Both the position numbers and the translations under genes were made by a program. Positions 1-15,850 of a stretch of 64,000 nucleotides of DNA are shown piece after piece; position 1 is the first letter of the stretch, and the number at the start of each line of letters is the position of its first letter. A model generated the notes under the pieces. That model was not told where the DNA came from. It searched no databases and saw nothing but the letters and a program-made list of their open reading frames with translations. Source of the stretch: Macrostomum lignano (Eukaryota); NCBI GenBank assembly GCA_002269645.1, contig NIVC01000282.1, forward strand, positions 124,001 through 188,000. The letters run 5' to 3'.

Positions 1-580
1 TTTGAAACTCGAGTAAAATTTGGTGTACAGGTTTGAGCACCTGTCAAATTTGAGTACAGTTTGAGCACGCGTGTTAAAATTTTGTTTTGACGAGCTCGAG
101 CAAGTGTGAGTTTAAAACAAAACCGAAATTAACTTCGTCGGTACACTGAAAACAAACCAAAAATAAAAAGAATCGTCGACGCAAAACAAACAAAAAATAA
201 CTGAAACATTTTGCCGGCACAAAAACTAAAACAAAACCGAAATTAATTGAAACTTCGTGGAGAGCAGAGTTAATTGACAAAAGAGAGAGAGTCAAAGAAG
301 AGAAGAAAGACTTTGCAAAGCAAGAAGACAAGTCCACTTCAACTTGAAGATACACTTTGCGGGACGCCTCATAAGTGCGAAATCAGCAAGCGAACAGAAC
401 AAGTTCATTTGAGGACAACCAGTGGCAGCAAGCCACACCGCATCCGAGGCCAGCGAATAACAAATCGACACCACAAGGCAATTCGTTACAGTCGAGGTTT
501 ATTCCGAGGCAAACACCACACTGGACGATCCGTTACAAATCGATCCAGATCTTGAACTACCGTTCTACCCTATCAACAAC

Positions 581-3259
581 ATGGCGCGGCGCAATCCAAC
601 GGTACACAGAGACATCAAAGAAACGGTCGGTACTTTCTCGATGGAGAAAGATTTTAACACATTTGTCGACCATTTTGACCTGGTATGTAGGGAATACAAC
701 CTACAAAATCCAGAGAAGGCACAGCTGCTGCCACCTCTTCTCCAAGGTACTGCGCGAGAAATTTACGGCAAGCTGGATGCGGCAACACAGCAAAATTATC
801 CAGCACTAATCATTCAACTGCGCGCGCATTTCAACCGTTGCGGCACAAACAGATCAGTGCTGCTGCACAAGTTGCATAACAGAAGGATGCAAGCAACAGA
901 ATCCTTCCTCGCCTTTGTGGACGATATCCGCCAGATAATTAAGGCACTGCATCAGCCACCGCTGCAAGCTGCGGACCAACCACCACTGGGAGCGGCAGAA
1001 TTGGCCGCCAGAGAAAGACAACGATTGATGGATCGTGAACAAAACCTCATCCTGCACGTAATAAACAACGCACAGCCGTCACTTCGGGATAGACTTTTGC
1101 GTGAAAATATCGAAACCGAAGAAGACCTTTTGCGTTGCGGAATGCAATGGGAAGCCAGTGCCCCATTAATGACGACAGGCAACAATGAAGTGCAGAAACT
1201 GACGCAGCAACTAAACAAGTTAATGCAGCACCAGACAGCTGCTATCGCCGAACAAAAAAGACGAAATGAACAAGCCTCAGCCAGATGTTACTACTGCGGA
1301 CAAGAAGGACATTATCAGATTAATTGTCCTCATTGGTCAACAAGATACGACAAGCCGCGACAGATATTCAACAATCAGAAGCCGCAGAAACCATGGCAGC
1401 ACTATCAAAATCGCCAACAACAAGGAATGAGACGCTTCGGAAATGATAGACGCTTCGGAAATAATGACCGCTCCGGAAATGATGGCCGCTTCGGAAACGA
1501 AGGCCGCTTCAGAAGTAATGGCTACAGGCCACGCAACGTCAGATACACACAAAGACAGCCGACGCAAGCAATGCCACGATACGCGAATGCCATCACGTAC
1601 ACACCGGAAAATGAACAGCAAGAACAGCAAGTGTTCACAATTGACGACTTGGAAATGGACTTCACAGTCCCGGAACTTGACATCAGCTTGATCGAAAAGA
1701 AGACGACGCACGAGGACAACACTGACAACACAGAAGAGACGAATGAAACCGAAATGATCAAATTAAAAGAGACCACCGGAGACAGCAGAGAAAACAGGAA
1801 GAAAGTAAATCACAAGACAAGGGAGGAGGCGGAGAGCGACATCGGCAACGAAGAAAAGATGAAAACCGGCGAAGAAAACAACTATGAATCGACAACAGTG
1901 GATGACGACAAAACGAGCATGAAAGACAAAGAAATGAAAGAAGAAGAAGAATGTAGAAGTTACGGCAACGACCACGACTGCGAGGTGCGTGATGACACGA
2001 ACGACTACCAAGCCGAAAGAGGAATGCAGGAAGAACCGAGAGCGGAGAATCTAAGTTCCGACAGCGATCAAGGCTACGAAATACAATGGAAAGATGAAGA
2101 AATGGAAAAAGAACAGGTGAAAGAAAAGCCGAGTTCCGACAGCGACGAATGCTACGAGATCCGATACAAACGAAATGGTGAAGCCTATATTCAAACGGTC
2201 GACTACAAGACAGAGAAAAGATACCAAACGCAATGGAGTGAAACAACGGAAACATCGGAAGAAGCCGCAGACGAAGATAATGAAATAACCAAAAAGCAAA
2301 GCGAATCAGAAGCCTTCCGCCTGGATCAGCCAATGGAACAACCGAAAGAATATGATGCGGACATGGAAGATAACGAATGGCGATCGCAGCCAATGCCAGC
2401 AAGGACAACGGCAAAATCCAAGAAGTGGAAAAACTGGCTATTCTGGATCATCGTGATACTACTGATAGCAGTAGTCGCCAAAGCAACGGCAACGGAAAAG
2501 CCAATGATTTGTCCAACGGATGCGCATATCCAACCGATGATCTACAAGATACCAACCGACATCAAATGCAGTTACTTCAAGACAAACCAGACAAAACCAA
2601 AGAAGATTACACTCGATCTCTACAAGGCTAACATCAAGAAGCATCGACAACACGGGATAGTATGCTTCAGAGACAAGCACCTGGTGGAAAAAGTTTGGCG
2701 CGGACAATGGAACCGGATCCGATTTAAACAACATGAGCTACATGTGTCGCACGCGGAATGCCTACAATGGAATCAAACACTATTTTCAAAGGATGGTGAA
2801 CTGGAACCAGATGAGAAGGTCGGCAACGCACAGCTGTTCAGAACAAAGAATTCAGCCAACGGTCGATATATTCACTTCTTCGGAAAATGGAAAGAATATA
2901 TGGCACGCAACAGCTACTTGATCAGAAATATTCCATTCTACTACAATCCGTACGAGAAAATGGAATCGTTACAGCTGCAACTAAGCGAATGTCGATACAG
3001 TGAAGGATGGTGTCCAACGCCGATTCTACGGAAGGAAGAACTACACAGTCTACCACTGAGTCCAACATATCATCAAGACTATCGATGGCAGATTGAGCAC
3101 AGAGCACAATCACACTATGAGGAACCGTACAAATCACGACAATACTTCTTCGCGTGGAAGTTGAGCCGGAAATTGACTGCAAGCTTCAAAAGTATCACAC
3201 AGTTGAAGGAGGACTACTGTCAAATACGTTTTTGGCAAAGTCAGGAGACTTGGCACTGA
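581..3259 (+). CDS. gag: Gag (capsid-like N-terminus, zinc knuckle) + acidic linker + internal signal peptide + N-terminal half of Env-like glycoprotein
   Basis: 892-aa ORF; CYYCGQEGHYQINC (CX2CX4HX4C) at 1286-1327; hydrophobic WLFWIIVILLIAVVA at 2435-2479 followed by an A-T-A signal-peptidase-type site; Cys-patterned ectodomain afterwards. Confidence 0.9.
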   Translation: MARRNPTVHRDIKETVGTFSMEKDFNTFVDHFDLVCREYNLQNPEKAQLLPPLLQGTAREIYGKLDAATQQNYPALIIQLRAHFNRCGTNRSVLLHKLHNRRMQATESFLAFVDDIRQIIKALHQPPLQAADQPPLGAAELAARERQRLMDREQNLILHVINNAQPSLRDRLLRENIETEEDLLRCGMQWEASAPLMTTGNNEVQKLTQQLNKLMQHQTAAIAEQKRRNEQASARCYYCGQEGHYQINCPHWSTRYDKPRQIFNNQKPQKPWQHYQNRQQQGMRRFGNDRRFGNNDRSGNDGRFGNEGRFRSNGYRPRNVRYTQRQPTQAMPRYANAITYTPENEQQEQQVFTIDDLEMDFTVPELDISLIEKKTTHEDNTDNTEETNETEMIKLKETTGDSRENRKKVNHKTREEAESDIGNEEKMKTGEENNYESTTVDDDKTSMKDKEMKEEEECRSYGNDHDCEVRDDTNDYQAERGMQEEPRAENLSSDSDQGYEIQWKDEEMEKEQVKEKPSSDSDECYEIRYKRNGEAYIQTVDYKTEKRYQTQWSETTETSEEAADEDNEITKKQSESEAFRLDQPMEQPKEYDADMEDNEWRSQPMPARTTAKSKKWKNWLFWIIVILLIAVVAKATATEKPMICPTDAHIQPMIYKIPTDIKCSYFKTNQTKPKKITLDLYKANIKKHRQHGIVCFRDKHLVEKVWRGQWNRIRFKQHELHVSHAECLQWNQTLFSKDGELEPDEKVGNAQLFRTKNSANGRYIHFFGKWKEYMARNSYLIRNIPFYYNPYEKMESLQLQLSECRYSEGWCPTPILRKEELHSLPLSPTYHQDYRWQIEHRAQSHYEEPYKSRQYFFAWKLSRKLTASFKSITQLKEDYCQIRFWQSQETWH

Positions 3260-6200
3260 CGTTTCAAAAGAAACCAGTCGAGCAAAAACTGAAATGCAAG
3301 GATACAGACAAGACACTATTCATCTCGGAACAAGAGATACCAGTCTACGTAAAGGATGAAGACAAACAAACCTTCTTGGCAATCATCAATGGAACGTATC
3401 AGCAACAAGAAAAACAGAATAGAAGACGACGTGACATCGAACGTCCCAAACTGGTGTCAAACCGGCTGTTGTCAGCAAAGATAACGGCTTTGGATCACAA
3501 TCTACACAACCAGTTAAACCACTTGCATCGAACACTGGTCCAGCTAACTTGCAAAATGCACGCAATCAACTTAAATTATGCCAGACAAAACTACTATGTC
3601 AACCCTACGATGACTTTTCGTAAAATCACCGGAATGACGAACGTTTTGGCAGTTCCAATATACGAGCATCTGTTGATATACAAGTGCACGCCGATACAGC
3701 ACTTTAACATCTTGCCGTCAAACACGTCAACAACCTGCTACGATAAGCCAAGGATTGAAGCGTTCTACGAAGGAAAACGAATTCAGGGATTCTTGGACAC
3801 GGTACACAACATCATCGTTGGCACCGCAATACCGAGACCTTGCACCACGGCAGTAAACTACTATCAACTGGACAATGCACTACACGTCATCAAAACAACT
3901 GGAACGACAGCAAACGTCACAGAACCGGAAGTAATCGTCGACGAAAACTACGACATGGAGGATTTGAAAATCCGATTCAACAGAACGAAGTATACGCCAT
4001 TCGCCGATATCCAACTTGACGAGATAACACCAGGATGGACGATCAACGACTTCTTGCAAGCGTTCATCACCCAACGCAAGATGATTCACCAGCTGTTCAC
4101 AAGAAAGGACAAAGGAACCGGGACAGGAAGATTTCCCGTCCTTGTTTCAATGGACAGCGCCATCAAATCATTTTGGACAAATAGCTTCTGGGAGCTGCTC
4201 AATGGAAGAGGCAGTCTCTATCAAGGATTCATCTTCTACGGTGCTTGCATTGTGTGGATTGTCACGGCAATCTTCATCATTTCATCGATCGTACGGTGCT
4301 TCAGTCAAACTTGTCCAAGAGCTAAGAAGACAGTGAATGCCATAATGCAAAGAACGACAACGGAAAGCGACAACAGTTTAGAACTAACAGAAACTGCACA
4401 TTGTGAGGTTCAAGGGCAACCGACACTAGCAACGCGGCTATATCCATCGATTCCGACAACACCAACGGCACCAAGGATACAACCACCCAACTATCAAGCA
4501 GAACAGCACGAGCCAAAATGGCCGGAAAACTACGTCTGTACGCTACACGCCGAGATTGGCAAAGCAATGGCTCAGGTCATTGTCAACAACTTGCCATGTC
4601 GAGCACTACTGGATTCAGGCAGCTCGATCACAGTCATCTCGCAACAATTATGCAACAAGCTACGACTCGCGGTACGACCAGCAGCAATCGCAGTTGCAGG
4701 AGCAGGAGGACATTCACTCAACATCCTAGGAAAAGCAGATATCGACTTGAAAATTGCTAATAAACAGCTGACGGTCCCGACGTACATCATCGACAGACTA
4801 CCAAACCAAGACGTCATCGTTGGAATCGACACGTTCAAGCAGCTTCAACTACCATTGACCTTCGACTTCAACAAGCAAACGTTTAGGATCGACACGGTGG
4901 AGCAACCGCTGATCAACCAGATTCGAGTACTACCGAAAGTAACTCTGCAGCAAGATGTCATTATCCAGCCTGAAAGCGCATGCTGGGTCAGAGCGAAAAC
5001 GACCAGCGCGGCAGATGAAGCAATGATATTTGATCCACACAGGAGAGTCACGGCAAAACATCAAATCATGATGCCTACGGCACTAGTGCTGGTTGCAAAG
5101 GATAAGCAACTGCCAGTACAAATCTTCAACCCGAACACAGAAACGGTTCATCTACGACAAGGAATGTGCATCGGTCATCTCAACACCCAAGCATCGGTTA
5201 TGCTGATTGAACAAGCGACTCCACGACTAACAGAGGAAGAATTTCAAAAGAAGATCAATTTGGATGACAGCCCGATTACGGAACAGCAAAAGAGGAAAGT
5301 TCGACAGCTGTTGTGGAAGTACAACGAAGCCTTCTGCCATCATGATTACGACATCGGACGAGCCAAGGACATCAAACAGGAAATCAAACTTCTGCCGCAC
5401 ACGGAACCAATTCAGTGCAAGCCGTACCCGATCGCCAAGCATCTGCAACAACACTTTGACGAAATCATCGATAAAATGCTAAAGCACGGCATCATCAGCA
5501 AAGCTATTTCGGCTTACTCCTCACCGTGCCTACTGGTACAGAAGAAGGAGACAAACGAAAGACGACTCGTATGCGACTTCAGACTGTTGAACAAGTACAT
5601 ACCGACGGATCAGCAAAGCCTACCGAAGATCTCCGAACTACTAGCAAAGCTCAACACGGCAAAATTGTTCACGGTGTTCGACCTACGTCATGGATTTTGG
5701 CAAATTGAAATCGAGAAAGAGTCACGACAGTACACGGCTTTCAAAACCTACAATGGACAAGTATACGAGTACAATCGATCGCCGATGGGACTTAGCAACA
5801 GCCCAGCAACGATGAGTCGACTAACAGCATACATGCTAGCAGGATGCACGAACCTGCTGCACTATGTCGACGACATTTTAGCCTACGGAGAGGATTTCGA
5901 GCGACTCTACGAAGCTACGGAGAAGGCCCTAGCGCTCATTCAACGCCAAGGTCTGAAGCTACAACCAACTAAATGCAAATTCTTCCGAGACAACGTGCGT
6001 TACCTGGGACATCAGGTGACAGCCAAAGGAATCTCACCGGACCCAGACAACGTGGAAAAGGTGAAGAAGTTTCCTACGCCAACCAGTATAACGAAGGTCC
6101 AATCATTCCTTGGACTTGCGCAATACTTCAGGAAGTTCTTACCTAACTTCGCAAAGACAGCAAAGCCACTGTACGACCTGCTCAAGTTCGACAAATGGAA

Positions 6201-8076
6201 GCAAGACAACTGGACACAGAGACAACAGGAAAGTTTCGACGAAATCAAACGACAGCTGACATCAGACGCACTGCTACAGCATCCGGACTTCGACAAGCCC
6301 TTCATCATCGAGACAGACGCCTCAGGAACGGGACTCGGAGCAGTCCTACTACAGGAAACCGAGGACAAGAAGGAACGACCTATTGCCTACGTCAGTCGAG
6401 CACTCAAACCAAATGAAACAAAGTGGTCAGCTACGGAACGAGAGCTACTAGGAGTCTTGTTCGCCCTGCGACAGTTTCATTACTACATCTATGGTTCTCC
6501 AATACAGACGATAGTACGCACGGATCATGCACCATTGACCTACGTCGTAACTACAAAAGGACAGACCAACAACCGACTCATCAGAATGACACTCAAGATC
6601 CAGGATTACAACTACAAACTCGTCTACAAACCAGGAATTACCAACAAAGCCGCGGACGCCCTGTCAAGAGCCTATGAAGTCAACGCCATTCATCCAATCC
6701 CTAACATCAAGGAGTTGGTGGATGAAACCGAGCGCGACAACTTCTACCAAGCGGTTAAAGACGACGACAAGAACATCAAACTCAGTCCCATGGAACGAAA
6801 ATTCCTACGCAAGCAACGACAACACCTAACAATCAATAAGTCACGGCTCTACTGGATGAGCGACAATAAACCCAAGATCTACATACCATATTCGTTTCGG
6901 CAAGCAATTCTCAACGAGCTACACGACAACCCACTCGCTGGACACCTGTCGGCAGCAAAGACCATCGCGAGAGTGGAACAATACTACTTTTGGCCAACTA
7001 TGTACGGCGACATCAAGCAGTATTGCAACAACTGCCATTCATGTGCTGCATCAAAGACAGGACGACGACAGAAACCGCAGCTACAGTCCATTCCGAAGTC
7101 GACTACAATGGACTGTCTAAGCATCGACATCACCGGACCGCTACCACCGAGCTGTCTCCAGGGCATCGCCTACACCTACATTCTAACCGCCTTGGATATC
7201 TTCTCGAAGTTTGCTATCGCCATACCGATACCGGACATCACAGCTCAGACAGTGGCAATGAGTTTCTTCAACGAAATCATTTGCAAGTACGGCACGCCGA
7301 AGAACCTCACATCGGACAACGGATCGCAGTTTACATCGCAACTGTTTCAGCAAGTCGTAAGGATTCTCAACATTACGCAGATCTACACATCGACCTACAA
7401 TCCGAAGGCAAACATGGTTGAACGGTTTCACCGCAACCTGCACGAGATGATTACACATTTCGCGCACCAACAGCCGGAAGACTGGATCATCTACCTGCAA
7501 TCTGTAACAATGGCCTACAACAGCGCTATTCATCGATCAACGGACAATACGCCATTCTTCCTAATGTTTGGACGAGACTTCCAACCGCCGAATCTGCTCG
7601 CACAGCAATTGCTACCATCGCAGTACGTGGAAGTACCGACTTCCATTCAGAAATTCGTCACGCAACTACACCTCGCATGGAAGATCGCCAAGCACAACAT
7701 TGACAACCAGGTGGCTCTGACCACCGGCAACGACGCGAGATCGACAACCCTGACGGCCGGCGACATCGTCTACCTACACTACCCGCCACAGCAGACGCAT
7801 AAACATGCACAGAAGTACAAAGGACCCTATCGAGTGGTCCAACTAACGTCACCAACAACGGCACGCCTGGCTAATGTACAAGATCCACATCAGCACCAGT
7901 TCTACGTACACATTCATCGACTAAAGAAGATCAACACTGACACAGCGACGTTTCTACCGACATTAGACAACGCTGATCGCACGCGTTCAACGAACCGCCA
8001 CATCGCGACGAAGCACGAGGAGACTCAAACGACAGATGTGAGCCAGCCACATGGCTACAACCTACGACCACGCTAG
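3154..8076 (+). CDS. pol: C-terminal half of Env-like glycoprotein (furin site, gB-like core, TM) fused in frame to Pol (PR, RT, RNase H, IN)
   Basis: 1640-aa ORF, frame open from 3121, no ATG start; RRRR at 3421-3432; TM at 4225-4293; protease Asp codon at 4612; YVDD at 5863-5874; IETDAS at ~6307; integrase H..H..CxxC, SIDITG, TSDNG, VERF; GPY motif; ends GYNLRPR. Confidence 0.93.
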   Translation: MEVEPEIDCKLQKYHTVEGGLLSNTFLAKSGDLALTFQKKPVEQKLKCKDTDKTLFISEQEIPVYVKDEDKQTFLAIINGTYQQQEKQNRRRRDIERPKLVSNRLLSAKITALDHNLHNQLNHLHRTLVQLTCKMHAINLNYARQNYYVNPTMTFRKITGMTNVLAVPIYEHLLIYKCTPIQHFNILPSNTSTTCYDKPRIEAFYEGKRIQGFLDTVHNIIVGTAIPRPCTTAVNYYQLDNALHVIKTTGTTANVTEPEVIVDENYDMEDLKIRFNRTKYTPFADIQLDEITPGWTINDFLQAFITQRKMIHQLFTRKDKGTGTGRFPVLVSMDSAIKSFWTNSFWELLNGRGSLYQGFIFYGACIVWIVTAIFIISSIVRCFSQTCPRAKKTVNAIMQRTTTESDNSLELTETAHCEVQGQPTLATRLYPSIPTTPTAPRIQPPNYQAEQHEPKWPENYVCTLHAEIGKAMAQVIVNNLPCRALLDSGSSITVISQQLCNKLRLAVRPAAIAVAGAGGHSLNILGKADIDLKIANKQLTVPTYIIDRLPNQDVIVGIDTFKQLQLPLTFDFNKQTFRIDTVEQPLINQIRVLPKVTLQQDVIIQPESACWVRAKTTSAADEAMIFDPHRRVTAKHQIMMPTALVLVAKDKQLPVQIFNPNTETVHLRQGMCIGHLNTQASVMLIEQATPRLTEEEFQKKINLDDSPITEQQKRKVRQLLWKYNEAFCHHDYDIGRAKDIKQEIKLLPHTEPIQCKPYPIAKHLQQHFDEIIDKMLKHGIISKAISAYSSPCLLVQKKETNERRLVCDFRLLNKYIPTDQQSLPKISELLAKLNTAKLFTVFDLRHGFWQIEIEKESRQYTAFKTYNGQVYEYNRSPMGLSNSPATMSRLTAYMLAGCTNLLHYVDDILAYGEDFERLYEATEKALALIQRQGLKLQPTKCKFFRDNVRYLGHQVTAKGISPDPDNVEKVKKFPTPTSITKVQSFLGLAQYFRKFLPNFAKTAKPLYDLLKFDKWKQDNWTQRQQESFDEIKRQLTSDALLQHPDFDKPFIIETDASGTGLGAVLLQETEDKKERPIAYVSRALKPNETKWSATERELLGVLFALRQFHYYIYGSPIQTIVRTDHAPLTYVVTTKGQTNNRLIRMTLKIQDYNYKLVYKPGITNKAADALSRAYEVNAIHPIPNIKELVDETERDNFYQAVKDDDKNIKLSPMERKFLRKQRQHLTINKSRLYWMSDNKPKIYIPYSFRQAILNELHDNPLAGHLSAAKTIARVEQYYFWPTMYGDIKQYCNNCHSCAASKTGRRQKPQLQSIPKSTTMDCLSIDITGPLPPSCLQGIAYTYILTALDIFSKFAIAIPIPDITAQTVAMSFFNEIICKYGTPKNLTSDNGSQFTSQLFQQVVRILNITQIYTSTYNPKANMVERFHRNLHEMITHFAHQQPEDWIIYLQSVTMAYNSAIHRSTDNTPFFLMFGRDFQPPNLLAQQLLPSQYVEVPTSIQKFVTQLHLAWKIAKHNIDNQVALTTGNDARSTTLTAGDIVYLHYPPQQTHKHAQKYKGPYRVVQLTSPTTARLANVQDPHQHQFYVHIHRLKKINTDTATFLPTLDNADRTRSTNRHIATKHEETQTTDVSQPHGYNLRPR

Positions 8077-8196: not shown

Positions 8197-8865
8197 ATGG
8201 GCAACGCACTGTCAAAACAGGCGCCCCAGCCTCAGCAGCTATATGACTGCCCGATATGTTTAACTGATGACTTGGCTGTCAAGCCACCGACTATTTGCAT
8301 CAATGGACATAAAGTTTGCGGACAATGTTTAAGTGATTCACACTATATTCAGCCCTGGCAGAGTTGTCCCCTCTGTAGAGATAGTTTGCGACAATGTGCC
8401 TATTGTTATTCTTGGCGCACGTTTCAATATTGTAACCACCAACATTTTATTTGCATGCACTGTTTGAAGCAAACCGCTAGTAGGGGCATTATAGGATGCC
8501 CCTTATGTAACAGTATGCCCCGCGAAAACACTTTTAAGAAATGGTGTCGGATTATACCTGACCCAGCGCGTTGTTTATCCGTTTACACTATGCACACCTT
8601 AACCGCTATGAGTATCGAACGGCGGCTGGAGTTTTGGCCTGTACCTCGCTTCGTTCAGCGGTCGCGACGACAGCTACTATTATATGCTCATAGAAATCAA
8701 GGATTTTTGCGTCATATGTCACCCTTGGAGATTGAGCGACGGTTGCGGCAGTTTTTGCATGACCACGAATCATTTCACTGGACGCTACACGTATACTGCC
8801 ACGCGCTTAAACGATTAGTGCTCTCACGTAGCTATTTTATTTGGCTTTTTAGGTCTCACCGATAG
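8197..8865 (+). CDS. Accessory ORF3 of the retroelement: double RING-like zinc-finger protein with N-myristoylation motif
   Basis: ATG at 8197 (track starts at TTG 8185); MGNALSK; CPIC..C..GH.VC..C..CPLC then CAYC..C.H.H..C..C..CPLC; lies between the pol stop and the PPT. Confidence 0.8.
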   Translation: MGNALSKQAPQPQQLYDCPICLTDDLAVKPPTICINGHKVCGQCLSDSHYIQPWQSCPLCRDSLRQCAYCYSWRTFQYCNHQHFICMHCLKQTASRGIIGCPLCNSMPRENTFKKWCRIIPDPARCLSVYTMHTLTAMSIERRLEFWPVPRFVQRSRRQLLLYAHRNQGFLRHMSPLEIERRLRQFLHDHESFHWTLHVYCHALKRLVLSRSYFIWLFRSHR

Positions 8866-8935: not shown

Positions 8936-9568
8936 ATGACCGAGATGGATACCTGCCCCTGCTGCCTCGAGGCACGGGAGCCGATGCTCCCGACTTGTGA
9001 ATGGGGGCACCAGGTGTGCTTCCCCTGCGACGAGCGGGCGCGAGAAATTGGCGACGTGACGATCCTTACCGCCTGCCCCGTCTGTCGCAGACCGCGGGTC
9101 CAATGTGCCCTTTGCGGCGACCAGCCCAATGTACGACTCTGTTCAAATCGGCATTGGGTGTGTTTCAGCTGTCTTCAGCGGTACGGTGCACGAGACATCA
9201 TGACGTGCACCGTGTGCCTGGCTCCGCTGTCCAACACAGCATCCGTACTACTGGCACCGATGCTCGCCGTACCGGAGCTAACGCTGGCGGAGCCGGATGA
9301 GCTAACCCTGGAACAGCTGGCCGTCGCCGTACGAACGTGGCCATGGCCGCTTCAGCATCAGGCCGACTGGCGGTGGTTACTAGACATCGCCAGGACTATG
9401 GTGCGTACAGCAGAACCGCTTACGACCATAGAGGCCTATCTGCTTTTGCTGGAGCGGACCGAGGATCCGCGATTCACTAAGTTTCAGTCGCTGTACTGGG
9501 CAGTGGCATCCCTGGTGGCGCGAACCACGCATCAGGTGAGCAGCCTGCTCAGGACAAGCTTCGGCTGA
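8936..9568 (+). CDS. Accessory ORF4 of the retroelement: double RING-like zinc-finger protein, paralogous to ORF3
   Basis: 210 aa; CPCC..C..GH.VC..C..CPVC then CALC..C..RH.VC..C..CTVC; Cys/His spacing nearly identical to ORF3. Confidence 0.8.
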   Translation: MTEMDTCPCCLEAREPMLPTCEWGHQVCFPCDERAREIGDVTILTACPVCRRPRVQCALCGDQPNVRLCSNRHWVCFSCLQRYGARDIMTCTVCLAPLSNTASVLLAPMLAVPELTLAEPDELTLEQLAVAVRTWPWPLQHQADWRWLLDIARTMVRTAEPLTTIEAYLLLLERTEDPRFTKFQSLYWAVASLVARTTHQVSSLLRTSFG

Positions 9569-9795
9569 ATGCCTCGGCAGCAGCGCGAGGACAGCAGGTA
9601 TCCCCGGCAGAAGACATGATTAACTTTAACTGAGCGTGGACTCAACACCACTAACCTTTATTAACACACAATGTATATTACGTGCATATATGTTAATAAA
9701 GAGAATTATGTAACCAATTTAAAGTTAAAGTATGGAATAATTCAATTACCCAAGATTTTTATTTCATTGTTAAAACTCGGGACGAGTTTTTTCGT

Positions 9796-9810: not shown

Positions 9811-10671
9811 TGTAGAGTGTTCTACCTCCCGTTAAAAAAGGAAAAAAGAAGATAATCGTATAATACTACTATAAGTAAGTAAGTACACGCATGTGCGCCT
9901 AAGCTTTGAATGAATCACGCTACCAGAAAAAGATGTTACCAGAATAATACGCCATGAGCCATTTTCCCCTTTTAGCGCAACACGTGAATTGTCATGATAC
10001 TATTTTGGATCAAAAACTTGTCTATAAATACAAGCGATCTGAAGCGGTACCGGAGCCATTCTCCCCACGGAAGAGGAGCGCTCCGAAGAGGAAGCCTTAG
10101 GAGGACTTCCTGATCTACCAAGTCAATCGAGACTCGGTCGAGTTGTTGCGGTAAGCCTTCCTTATTTGCGCCCGTTGTGTTAGAGACGTCTCGCTCAAGT
10201 CTATTGAGACTTGAGTCTAATTGAGTCTGTTGAGACTCTTGAGTCTGTTTAGACTCCATTGGTTGCAGTCTCCAGAAGGACTGCCCTTGATAGATCTTAG
10301 AGGACTATCAGTGGTTTCCGGAGCTATACCTAGAGTGCATAGAGGCACTGCTAGAAGAAGGAGGCTTAATTTAGACCGCAGTTTGGCGCAGGGTACCCAT
10401 TGTTGCTACGAGGCCTCTGATTGGTCCTGACGGAAGATACCGGCCGGAAGAACTTATCGGAAGTACAAGAGGAACCAGGACCAGAGCAACTGAAGAATCA
10501 AGGCGCCTGATCTACGAGATCTACTGACAAGTTCCTAGCGAGAACTACTCAAGAAATTCAAATCCGGATTAAAGGTAATTGAATACCTTCGTTTGACTTA
10601 CTGGGTTGCCTAGCTGTTGAGCTAGAAGTGATTGTTCCTTGATTATCGAAAGTCGGGTAATAAGGAACACA
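9811..10671 (+). repeat. 3' LTR (~861 bp)
   Basis: Starts TGTAGAG next to the PPT and ends ...GGAACACA where unrelated repeat sequence resumes; TATA at 10023; U5 hairpin at 10633-10669. The partner LTR is not in the window, so the right end is inferred. Confidence 0.75.
10023..10030 (+). promoter_or_regulatory. TATA box in LTR U3
   Basis: TATAAATA about 210 bp into the LTR. Confidence 0.6.
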
Positions 10672-10730
10672 TCAAAATGAGTGCCAGTGGCTCTAAAATG
10701 AGCGCTGACAACACCGATTCTGAAAATAAT
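10672..10730 (+). repeat. Fragment of the AAAATGAGTGCC-satellite-bearing dispersed element (target of the LTR insertion)
   Basis: AAAATGAGTGCC..AAAATGAGCGCTGACAA..GATTCTGAAAATAAT matches the array end at ~49495-49535. Confidence 0.7.
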
Positions 10731-11174: not shown

Positions 11175-12172
11175 GGCATCTGCTTCCTTATTTTGGCATC
11201 TGCTTCCTTATTTTGGCATCTGCTTCCTTATTTTGGCATCTGCTTCCTTATTTTGGCATCTGCTTCCTTACTTTGGCATCTGCTTCCTTATTTTGGCATC
11301 TGCTTCCTTACTTTGGCATCTGCTTCCTTACTTTGGCATCTGCTTCCTTATTTTGGCATCTGCTTCCTTATTTTGGCATCTGCTTCCTTATTTTGGCATC
11401 TGCTTCCTTATTTTGGCATCTGCTTCCTTATTTTGGCATCTGCTTCCTTATTTTGGCATCTGCTTCCTTATTTTGGCATCTGCTTCCTTATTTTGGCATC
11501 TGCTTCCTTATTTTGGCATCTGCTTCCTTATTTTGGCATCTGCTTCCTTATTTTGGCATCTGCTTCCTTATTTTGGCATCTGCTTCCTTATTTTGGCATC
11601 TGCTTCCTTATTTTGGCATCTGCTTCCTTATTTTGGCATCTGCTTCCTTATTTTGGCATCTGCTTCCTTATTTTGGCATCTGCTTCCTTATTTTGGCATC
11701 TGCTTCCTTATTTTGGCATCTGCTTCCTTATTTTGGCATCTGCTTCCTTATTTTGGCATCTGCTTCCTTATTTTGGCATCTGCTTCCTTATTTTGGCATC
11801 TGCTTCCTTATTTTGGCATCTGCTTCCTTATTTTGGCATCTGCTTCCTTATTTTGGCATCTGCTTCCTTATTTTGGCATCTGCTTCCTTATTTTGGCATC
11901 TGCTTCCTTATTTTGGCATCTGCTTCCTTATTTTGGCATCTGCTTCCTTATTTTGGCATCTGCTTCCTTATTTTGGCATCTGCTTCCTTATTTTGGCATC
12001 TGCTTCCTTATTTTGGCATCTGCTTCCTTATTTTGGCATCTGCTTCCTTATTTTGGCATCTGCTTCCTTATTTTGGCATCTGCTTCCTTATTTTGGCATC
12101 TGCTTCCTTATTTTGGCATCTGCTTCCTTATTTTGGCATCTGCTTCCTTATTTTGGCATTTGCTTCCTCACT
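11175..12172. repeat. Minisatellite, 20-bp unit GGCATCTGCTTCCTTATTTT, ~50 near-identical copies
   Basis: Direct reading; explains the three overlapping repetitive ORFs. Confidence 0.98.
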
Positions 12173-12774
12173 TTGACAAGATCATATATGCACAAGATGG
12201 GGCCTCTCATTAACCACTTATGTGGCCACAGAAGCCAATGTGAAAAAAAATTGCAACTCGCGACAGCGCGAAAATCAACTACTGAACTTAAACTCAATTT
12301 CGTCAGTAGTCTCTGCAGTGCATGCATCATTCTTAGTTTGCTTGAGTAGCTTTTTATCTAATTCATTTGCTTGCATGTATCACATACAAAAATTCCGTTC
12401 CACTGAGATACCTGCGAAGGCTGTCCCTAATCGGATTATTTCATATCTGACAAAACGAGCGAGGTCAAACTTTCCCTATTGACAGTATGACATTGATGCA
12501 GAATGACATTTTCATCCAGTTTCCAATTTACCGTTTTATCAGGACGCAACACTCAATACGAAGTGAGACCTATCTAGGGAATCGTAAGATCTATGGATTG
12601 AACAAAGTTCTGATCTGACTCATAGGACACTTGTCTCCCGAATACTTCCAGAGCAATTCTCTTCCTCTTCATAACAACGATAGATTTCTTGGTAAATCTT
12701 AAGCCGTTTCTTAGTAAAGAAGTCAACTTTAGTTAAATTCGAAGACAGCTTGCTGCAGACCAGCGAAAATCGAC

Positions 12775-15343: not shown

Positions 15344-15850
15344 TCAGGCGCTTCCAGTCAAGAAGAAGGCCCGCCTGGTCACGCTGCGGTCAGTGTACAA
15401 GTAGATTGACACCTCAGAGCGGGGGGCGGTATTTAGCGTGTAACGCAGGTTGTTGCTCTGATAGCCCCTGAGCCGGTAGCCAGAGCTCCGGTAGCTAGTG
15501 CTAGTGTAGTTGATGGTGAGGTAGTCGCAGCAGCTTTCAGTCTGGAAGTTGCGCAGGTTGAGGTTCACAGAGCCGCCGCGCCTGTTCTCAGTGCTGTTCA
15601 CCAGGACGTAGCGACACCTCAGATTGTTGCTGTACTGGCCGCCGCAGACACCGTTGGAGGCGGCGTTCAGAAAGAAGCGAGTGTTGCCGTAGCTCCTCGT
15701 CTTGTAGAGGGTTGGGCAGGTGGACGCTGGAACAGTTTGGCGGGTCAACAGGGCAATTGTAGTTAAAATATCATAGGTCTACATATTGCTTAACTTACAG
15801 ACAAAAGCGGCGAAGCAAGCCAGCACCAGGACGCAGATGAACAGCTTCAT
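15344..15850 (-). CDS. Small secreted single-CUB-domain protein (exons 15850-15799 and 15726-15344)
   Basis: Signal peptide MKLFICVLVLACFAAFVS; 72-bp phase-1 GT-AG intron (15798-15727); CUB motifs YSNNLRCRY, FQTESCCDYLTI, YTDRSVTRRAF; AATAAA at 15295-15290. Confidence 0.85.

Follow-up and report, generated by a model that had tools for sequence, protein, structure and literature searches.

A gB-type class III envelope protein in a Ty3/gypsy element of gag-env-pol order from Macrostomum lignano

According to passages of PMC13524379 (Chary & Hayashi, eLife 2026), Ty3/gypsy elements across animals carry envelope (env) proteins of the herpesvirus gB type, the order GAG-ENV-POL occurs in nematodes, bryozoans and flatworms, and env of this type in elements with that order is ancient and widespread, with ectodomains that lie between two membrane spans. 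The same passages describe Bel/Pao elements with a chuvirus-like glycoprotein (Dezordi et al. 2020), in which the same fusogen class sits on a long terminal repeat (LTR) element. The window analysed here, the whole stretch of 64,000 nucleotides (nt) from Macrostomum lignano (GCA_002269645.1, contig NIVC01000282.1, positions 124,001-188,000, forward strand), holds a multicopy Ty3/gypsy LTR retrotransposon with the layout gag-env-pol. For a flipped env-pol order in nematodes, PMC13524379 cites Sacco et al. 2022. It is virtually certain that the Gypsy element of the window carries a gB-type class III env, and the class III fold is settled. Good confidence is also placed in the fuller reading, in which the env belongs to a Ty3/gypsy element that transposed recently and is one of the published GAG-ENV-POL elements of HSV/gB type. 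A gB-type fusogen in a Gypsy element is already known, probably down to the family of the window copy.

The element shares with the HSV/gB-type GAG-ENV-POL errantiviruses, as presented in passages of PMC13524379, an env between gag and pol, the two spans, multiple copies and flanking LTRs. Row 1445 in Supplementary file 1 of that paper, Platyhelminthes_Rhabditophora_Mlig_errantivirus_2, is given as ENV_HSV with 16 copies, an LTR at 0-863 and a second LTR at 9,727. The reverse complement of its primer-site 12-mer equals the primer site of the window element (TGGTGATCTCGC), which follows the 5' LTR. The window family has 864-nt LTRs and, in its short variant, an LTR spacing of 9,727-9,759, compared with 9,727 in row 1445. 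Since primer site, LTR length and LTR spacing are the same, the window family is very probably the family of row 1445 and is thus listed in PMC13524379. The window copy itself differs from row 1445 in being a long variant with two RING open reading frames (ORFs), a spacing of 10,810 and a frameshift.

With a natural unbroken sibling copy (L004) as the env query, a search of 1.84 billion representatives found 58 relatives at E 0.001. The alignment contained 48 rows (45 relatives and 3 genomic copies) after 12 long polyproteins or duplicates and 1 short fragment were left out. The profile of this 48-row family, compared with the PDB, gave herpes gB in 50 of the 50 listed rows with a best E of 1.1e-16. 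PF24664 matched 24 of the 48 aligned rows and Glycoprotein_B matched 3, and the bryozoan envs in passages of PMC13524379 showed by eye the same motif run as the alignment. With single sequences, the env N-half alone had no Pfam match, the env sequence had 0 matches in the PDB and the word-indexed protein search with the whole env returned just 1 match. The parts of env were as follows.

2423..2490, + strand: first hydrophobic span, putative internal signal or signal-anchor (hydropathy peak 2.4)
2492..4227, + strand: gB-type class III env ectodomain, 575 amino acids in unbroken siblings
2690..2710, + strand: putative fusion loop 1, KVWRGQW; the model has it where a long beta hairpin turns (strands 55-70 and 73-83)
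2873..2890, + strand: putative fusion loop 2, HFFGKW (model and alignment)
3421..3432, + strand: furin-type site RRRR (motif position)
3460..3600, + strand: long central helix (equivalent of gB domain III), then NPT; model helix 324-370, aligned with the helix and NPT of Epstein-Barr virus (EBV) gB
4228..4293, + strand: second hydrophobic span, the env membrane anchor (hydropathy)

Further motifs were located at 2654-2665 (GIVC), 2744-2761 (VSHAEC) and 2990-3013 (CRYSEGWC), and those of the C-half at 3601 (NPT), 3670-3687 (LLIYKC), 3736-3750 (CYDKP), 3787 (GFLD) and 3832-3843 (PRPC). All 12 ectodomain cysteines were kept in nearly every alignment row that covers them; this putative disulfide framework, together with the C-terminal anchor, is that of a class III protein. 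Aromatic residues were common in homologues at the place of loop 1. At loop 2 most homologues had CC.W, and both cysteines were absent in the window family. The first place of the furin site was R in 31 of 39 rows and the last place was R in 35 of 40. Around 3020-3150 of the window, approximately 44 residues in the fusion-domain half were missing from most homologues (occupancy 11-18 of 48).

The AlphaFold2 model of the ectodomain (predicted local distance difference test (pLDDT) 81.5, predicted template modelling score (pTM) 0.61) showed a long hairpin with KVWRGQW at the turn and a second aromatic loop, and both aromatic motifs sat in fusion-domain loops of the predicted models. The central helix comprised 47 residues (324-370) with a pLDDT of 78-96, as is typical of class III proteins, and the models also had the class III multi-domain fold with a long fusion domain, a PH-like domain and a beta-rich crown. 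Every row listed by Foldseek against the PDB was gB (best E 3.6e-20). A second structural aligner matched gB domain IV over 166 residues with Z 11.5 and a root mean square deviation (rmsd) of 3.8 Å, and the rmsd to prefusion gB (10-15 Å) was lower than that to postfusion gB (approximately 32 Å). Folded alone, the N-half gave a model with a pLDDT of 89 which, compared with 48,161 chains, placed gB at ranks 1-5 (best Z 10.2, rmsd 8.2, 216 aligned), followed by Chandipura G (Z 6.9), Bourbon Gp (6.2), Thogoto Gp (5.8), and rabies G and gp64 (5.0), with PH domains also among the matches. Among predicted virus structures, the best rows were nyamivirus-like glycoproteins and entomopoxvirus proteins, then gB, at 9-15% identity; Beihai rhabdo-like virus 3 (E 6e-25) and Midway nyavirus (2.7e-24) were at the top and chu-related rows appeared from rank 17 only. 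A three-copy prediction of residues 320-540 without alignment scored 0.15 (mark 0.32) and was used neither for nor against a trimer.

The original prediction had called env a gB-like class III fusogen from a run of motifs. Each of these motifs was found in its place, and the parallel drawn between the C-half and the gB core was upheld by the profile alignment, in which helix-NPT, crown cysteines and GxLD were in register with gB. The profile and structure comparison that it had proposed returned significant matches to class III fusogens, with gB first (all 50 profile rows and the top of the predicted-fold matches), then vesiculovirus G, thogotovirus Gp and gp64. Its likening of the N-half to rhabdovirus G stood only in the sense in which all class III proteins are alike, and among solved structures gB outranked Chandipura G in that half.

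Compared with herpesvirus gB of EBV (3fvc), Kaposi's sarcoma-associated herpesvirus (9cu4), herpes simplex virus 1 (2gum) and human cytomegalovirus (5cxf), the window env has the same domain order, central helix followed by NPT, domain IV with its strands and cysteines, furin site and C-terminal anchor, and its fusion domain likewise has two putative loops. However, it is 10-16% identical to them, shorter, part of a retroelement polyprotein and without gH/gL partner genes. The mononegaviral and chuviral glycoproteins (PF24664; nyamivirus, chuvirus and rhabdovirus G) share the class III fold, but their identity to the window env is 9-15% and solved rhabdovirus G ranks under gB. The Bel/Pao elements belong to a different superfamily, and their env lies behind pol (relative P0050), whereas that of the window lies inside the gag-pol frame.

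A second family (family 2) with a 62-64% identical env was present in the genome. The other parts of the window element, apart from the spacer and the RING ORFs described below, were as follows.

581..1327, + strand: gag, the polyprotein start, with capsid region and one CCHC knuckle (1286-1327; zf-CCHC E 4e-4)
1616..2420, + strand: acidic linker from gag to env, 31% D+E, poorly conserved (28-31% identity to family 2)
4567..8076, + strand: pol (Pfam), sharing its frame with the env C-half; protease 4567-4857, reverse transcriptase (RT) 5539-6018, RNase H 6211-6609, integrase from 6883
9811..10674, + strand: 3' LTR of 864 nt, TG...CA, with a purine tract just before it

The Pfam domain order protease, RT, RNase H and integrase is that of Ty3/gypsy, as are the LTR termini, primer site, purine tract and short target duplication. 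The 5' LTR falls outside the window, immediately upstream of it (L021:4001-4864), and matches the 3' LTR at 864/864 bases, so the insertion is very young. The target duplication of the window copy was 4 bp; duplications were found in all five copies checked, of 4 bp in four and 5 bp in one. The Pfam scan of pol found none of the Bel/Pao profiles (Pao peptidase A17, DUF5641), and the sole sign toward Bel/Pao was a weak gag match to DUF1759 (E 0.0016, under the cut-off).

Among 93 candidate DNA matches in the genome, 40 were scored and all 40 had 92-100% identity, while the protein search listed 80 matches, 12 of them identical across all 575 ectodomain residues. Sibling copies have a single open gag-env-pol frame of approximately 2,500 codons; one copy had an ORF of 2,498 codons that opens with the gag ATG and closes at the stop of integrase, and 13/20 loci were in one frame from the first loop to the protease. 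Uninterrupted ORFs and several near-identical copies are thus a property of the family and not of the frameshifted window copy, which as sequenced is unable to encode the complete polyprotein. Purifying selection acts on env, with a ratio of nonsynonymous to synonymous substitution rates (dN/dS) of about 0.1 (0.12 in comparison with a subfamily copy of 94% identity and 0.09 with family 2, where dS is near saturation). For RT the ratio was 0.02-0.06 in the same comparisons, and for gag 0.017 against the 94% subfamily copy. Across 30 copies, the proportion of nonsynonymous differences (pN) was below that of synonymous differences (pS) in nearly all differing bins. The env of these copies formed a patchwork with sharp switches between a pS of approximately 0.5 and approximately 0.05 and a far lower pN, which indicates mosaics of two sub-lineages that recombine, with env conserved throughout. 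Most amino-acid change in the env copies was around the second loop region (residues 100-150). Contigs of 4 sequencing runs, whose RNA origin is a guess, covered 30/30 bins with no GT-AG joint listed, which is uninformative on expression or splicing. Several copies of the clade lay close together on single contigs (C2121, C1130, C87, C272 and C4009) and may be nested clusters or silencing loci.

Between the env anchor and the protease lies a short stretch with motifs resembling retroviral late domains.

4294..4566, + strand: predicted cytosolic spacer of 93 residues with LYP (4438), PTAP (4462-4473) and PPNY (4483-4494), putative late-domain function

The spacer was surveyed in 60 proteins, with 8 (duplicates, near-duplicates or a chimera) dropped at the outset; the env core was present in 52 and a usable spacer in 34. 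P[TS]AP was found in 9/34 homologous spacers compared with 0.33 expected from shuffles, PPxY in 3/34 compared with 0.85 and YPxL-type motifs in 9/34 compared with 2.8. As a control, 10 of the 11 other anagrams of P[TS]AP occurred in 0/34 spacers, and [TS]APP occurred in 6, mostly overlapping. Elsewhere in the same proteins, P[TS]AP gave 5 matches in 39,968 residues compared with 9 spacers in 3,441. With the host clade collapsed it was present in 6/31 spacers, and it was kept in 29/30 genomic copies. Retroviral late-domain motifs recruit the endosomal sorting complex required for transport (ESCRT), and human immunodeficiency virus 1 p6 likewise carries PTAP, PPxY and YPxL-type peptides in a short proline-rich stretch just upstream of the protease. 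However, p6 follows nucleocapsid, whereas the window spacer follows the env anchor and would act as an env tail. The balance tips slightly against the motifs being working late domains. The main text of PMC13524379 does not mention late domains, ESCRT, PTAP or budding, which its figures and deposited sequences may cover, and the literature search found no report of late-domain motifs in these elements.

In unbroken copies, the polyprotein shows just two hydrophobic peaks. With the known topology of membrane proteins, Gag would then lie in the cytosol and the ectodomain in the lumen, and spacer and Pol would return to the cytosol. In the proposed mechanism, a single Gag-Env-Pol polyprotein would span the membrane twice, with Gag remaining cytosolic. 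The first hydrophobic span would thread the ectodomain into the lumen of the endoplasmic reticulum, with signal peptidase cutting behind it, and furin would cleave env at RRRR. The second span would anchor env, and the spacer and the protease-RT-integrase part would hang on the cytosolic side, so that Gag, Env and Pol would be produced 1:1:1 and meet on one membrane. PTAP and PPxY of the spacer would then recruit ESCRT for budding, the protease of the element would release capsid and enzymes, and trimeric env would mediate fusion between the particle and an adjacent cell, most likely for transfer of the element from soma to germ line. Env would likely act as a fusogen on enveloped particles, and potential infectivity of the element is plausible. 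A broader proposal is tentative and rather doubtful: enveloped viruses built from a double-spanning Gag-Env-Pol, with budding signals moved from Gag to a gB-type env tail that tows Pol and, in this clade, with two to three RING proteins that serve as accessory ubiquitin ligases, either in budding or against silencing by the host. Budding and cell entry without the herpes partner proteins are the question left by the published work on this class, for which a family that is young, with LTRs that are identical, an env under selection and many unbroken copies, is a good setting, and the enriched PTAP/PSAP behind the env anchor offers a concrete budding hypothesis.

In the window copy, env is split over two ORFs (461-3259 and 3121-8076) that overlap by 139 nt, and the frame change falls within 3121-3259. 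Such an overlap resembles those of gag and pol, and 3/20 loci were broken between the env halves, yet it is scarcely credible that the frame change is a programmed ribosomal frameshift or a genuine two-gene layout. The env halves shared one frame in 17/20 loci, other copies were interrupted at different places and the break of the window copy lies inside a folded domain. A programmed frameshift in env was rejected on account of the unbroken siblings; because most siblings are unbroken, the frameshift is a defect of the window copy or of its assembly and not design. The original prediction had also seen in env an independent capture by a Gypsy lineage. The Gypsy carrier was confirmed by its pol order and LTR features; the independent capture was not supported as new or specific to the lineage, as env is closest to that of other gag-env-pol elements, the env and RT trees agree in a small sample and the env type is published. 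A capture of a viral glycoprotein by this lineage that was both recent and independent is very improbable. Negative-strand RNA virus glycoproteins and entomopoxvirus proteins did stand ahead of gB in the predicted-virus rows, but identity to viral proteins was 9-15%, compared with 22-35% to element-borne relatives. The env of the window family is on a long branch in the 36-row env tree, which came from a quick, unfinished search and covered env-bearing relatives, and passages of PMC13524379 give the GAG-ENV-POL elements as non-monophyletic. However, the env and RT trees of the 11 rows with both domains had the same starred groups (midpoint root, with long-branch warnings on the env tree), and of the 37 relatives scanned, out of 58, 17 carried domains of retroelements; RT followed env in 7, and 1 was of Bel/Pao type. 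The last (P0050, E 2.6e-4) had Pao peptidase A17 and DUF5641, with env behind pol. The named relatives are a flatworm polyprotein and a nematode polyprotein. No close relative was found in IMG/VR contigs, where a scan with the single env protein, which finds close relatives only, gave 7 pattern matches and 0 confirmed. The tree agreement and the element-borne relatives together suggest old co-descent of env and element rather than fresh capture. The env relative P0005 had an N-terminal NADAR domain (E 8.5e-16), and P0003, a related flatworm gag-env-pol polyprotein, had an insert of approximately 220 residues before the furin site.

The use of env in entry has also to be weighed against a non-entry job, for example holding Gag and Pol at a membrane so that they assemble inside the cell, or fusing cells directly without free particles. 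Env lies within the polyprotein, so its two spans shape assembly regardless of the ectodomain, and the gag ORF has no MG start. This explanation is nevertheless unlikely, since both loops, the 12 cysteines and the furin site were kept across families 62-64% identical and in distant homologues, and a mere tether needs none of them. Several points weigh against env as a gB-type entry fusogen with the proposed mechanism. Herpes gB requires partner glycoproteins. Purifying selection on env shows use and says nothing of which use. The match of the window's own env C-half to Pfam Monjiviricetes_fusion (E 4.5e-6, 25.4 bits) stays below the curated cut-off (27 bits), and whole-chain template modelling scores to gB in Foldseek were low (0.24-0.37, rmsd 32-50 Å), which may stem from the hinge position in the predicted monomer. 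P[TS]AP was not present in 25/34 homologous spacers, and the limits of the spacers came from a rough hydropathy rule. The entry mechanism of gB-type elements is called unknown in passages of PMC13524379, and a search of its supplements for the env motifs gave 0 matches, the coding sequence of row 1445 not being shown there. The row 1445 env was absent from the first 30 of 58 flatworm sequences in the supplement search.

Between integrase and the 3' LTR, two further ORFs formed a RING cassette.

8197..8865, + strand: accessory ORF 1, 222 amino acids, two RING-like cysteine clusters (zf-RING_2 E 1.7e-4, under the cut-off)
8936..9568, + strand: accessory ORF 2, 210 amino acids, a paralogue of ORF 1 (30% identical by sequence comparison)

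Related RING ORFs, two or three in tandem, were also found behind integrase in family 2 copies, with a dN/dS of 0.11-0.35 for the RING ORFs, and the second one was lost in many copies (the shorter variant). A search for homologues of RING ORF 1 outside the genome found none at E 0.01 among 93 length-matched candidates, and its top Atlas match was to viral C3HC4 proteins (0.91, low recognition), which is a lead only. An accessory E3 ligase role of the RING ORFs is a guess from the fold class; if they are a true E3 ligase set, the cassette would be a new kind of LTR-element accessory gene. A myristoylated, arenavirus Z-like role of RING ORF 1 was considered and dropped as a general feature because the MG start (MGNALS, MGNAQS) occurred only in family 1 and not in family 2. 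In passages of PMC12801592, PMC5408684 and PMC10309623, CERV of Cer1 is not a RING protein and the extra ORFs of rotifers are given without mention of RING. The main text of PMC13524379 does not mention RING or polyprotein, and its figures and deposited sequences may cover RING genes; the literature search found no report of a RING cassette in such elements. Some RING ORFs (L074-L078; C273 and C1391) had no match to gag, env or pol within the 14-24 kb of sequence examined and would be either internally deleted elements or captured copies.

No tRNA genes were found in the window. An ORF piece at 15344-15778 (- strand) resembled by eye a host-gene CUB-domain exon. From 11175-12200 onward, the window was densely populated with minisatellite arrays with units of 10-30 bp in 33 families. 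Finally, one 21-bp minisatellite family occurred twice in the window, in opposite orientations, at approximately 21,050 and 48,900.

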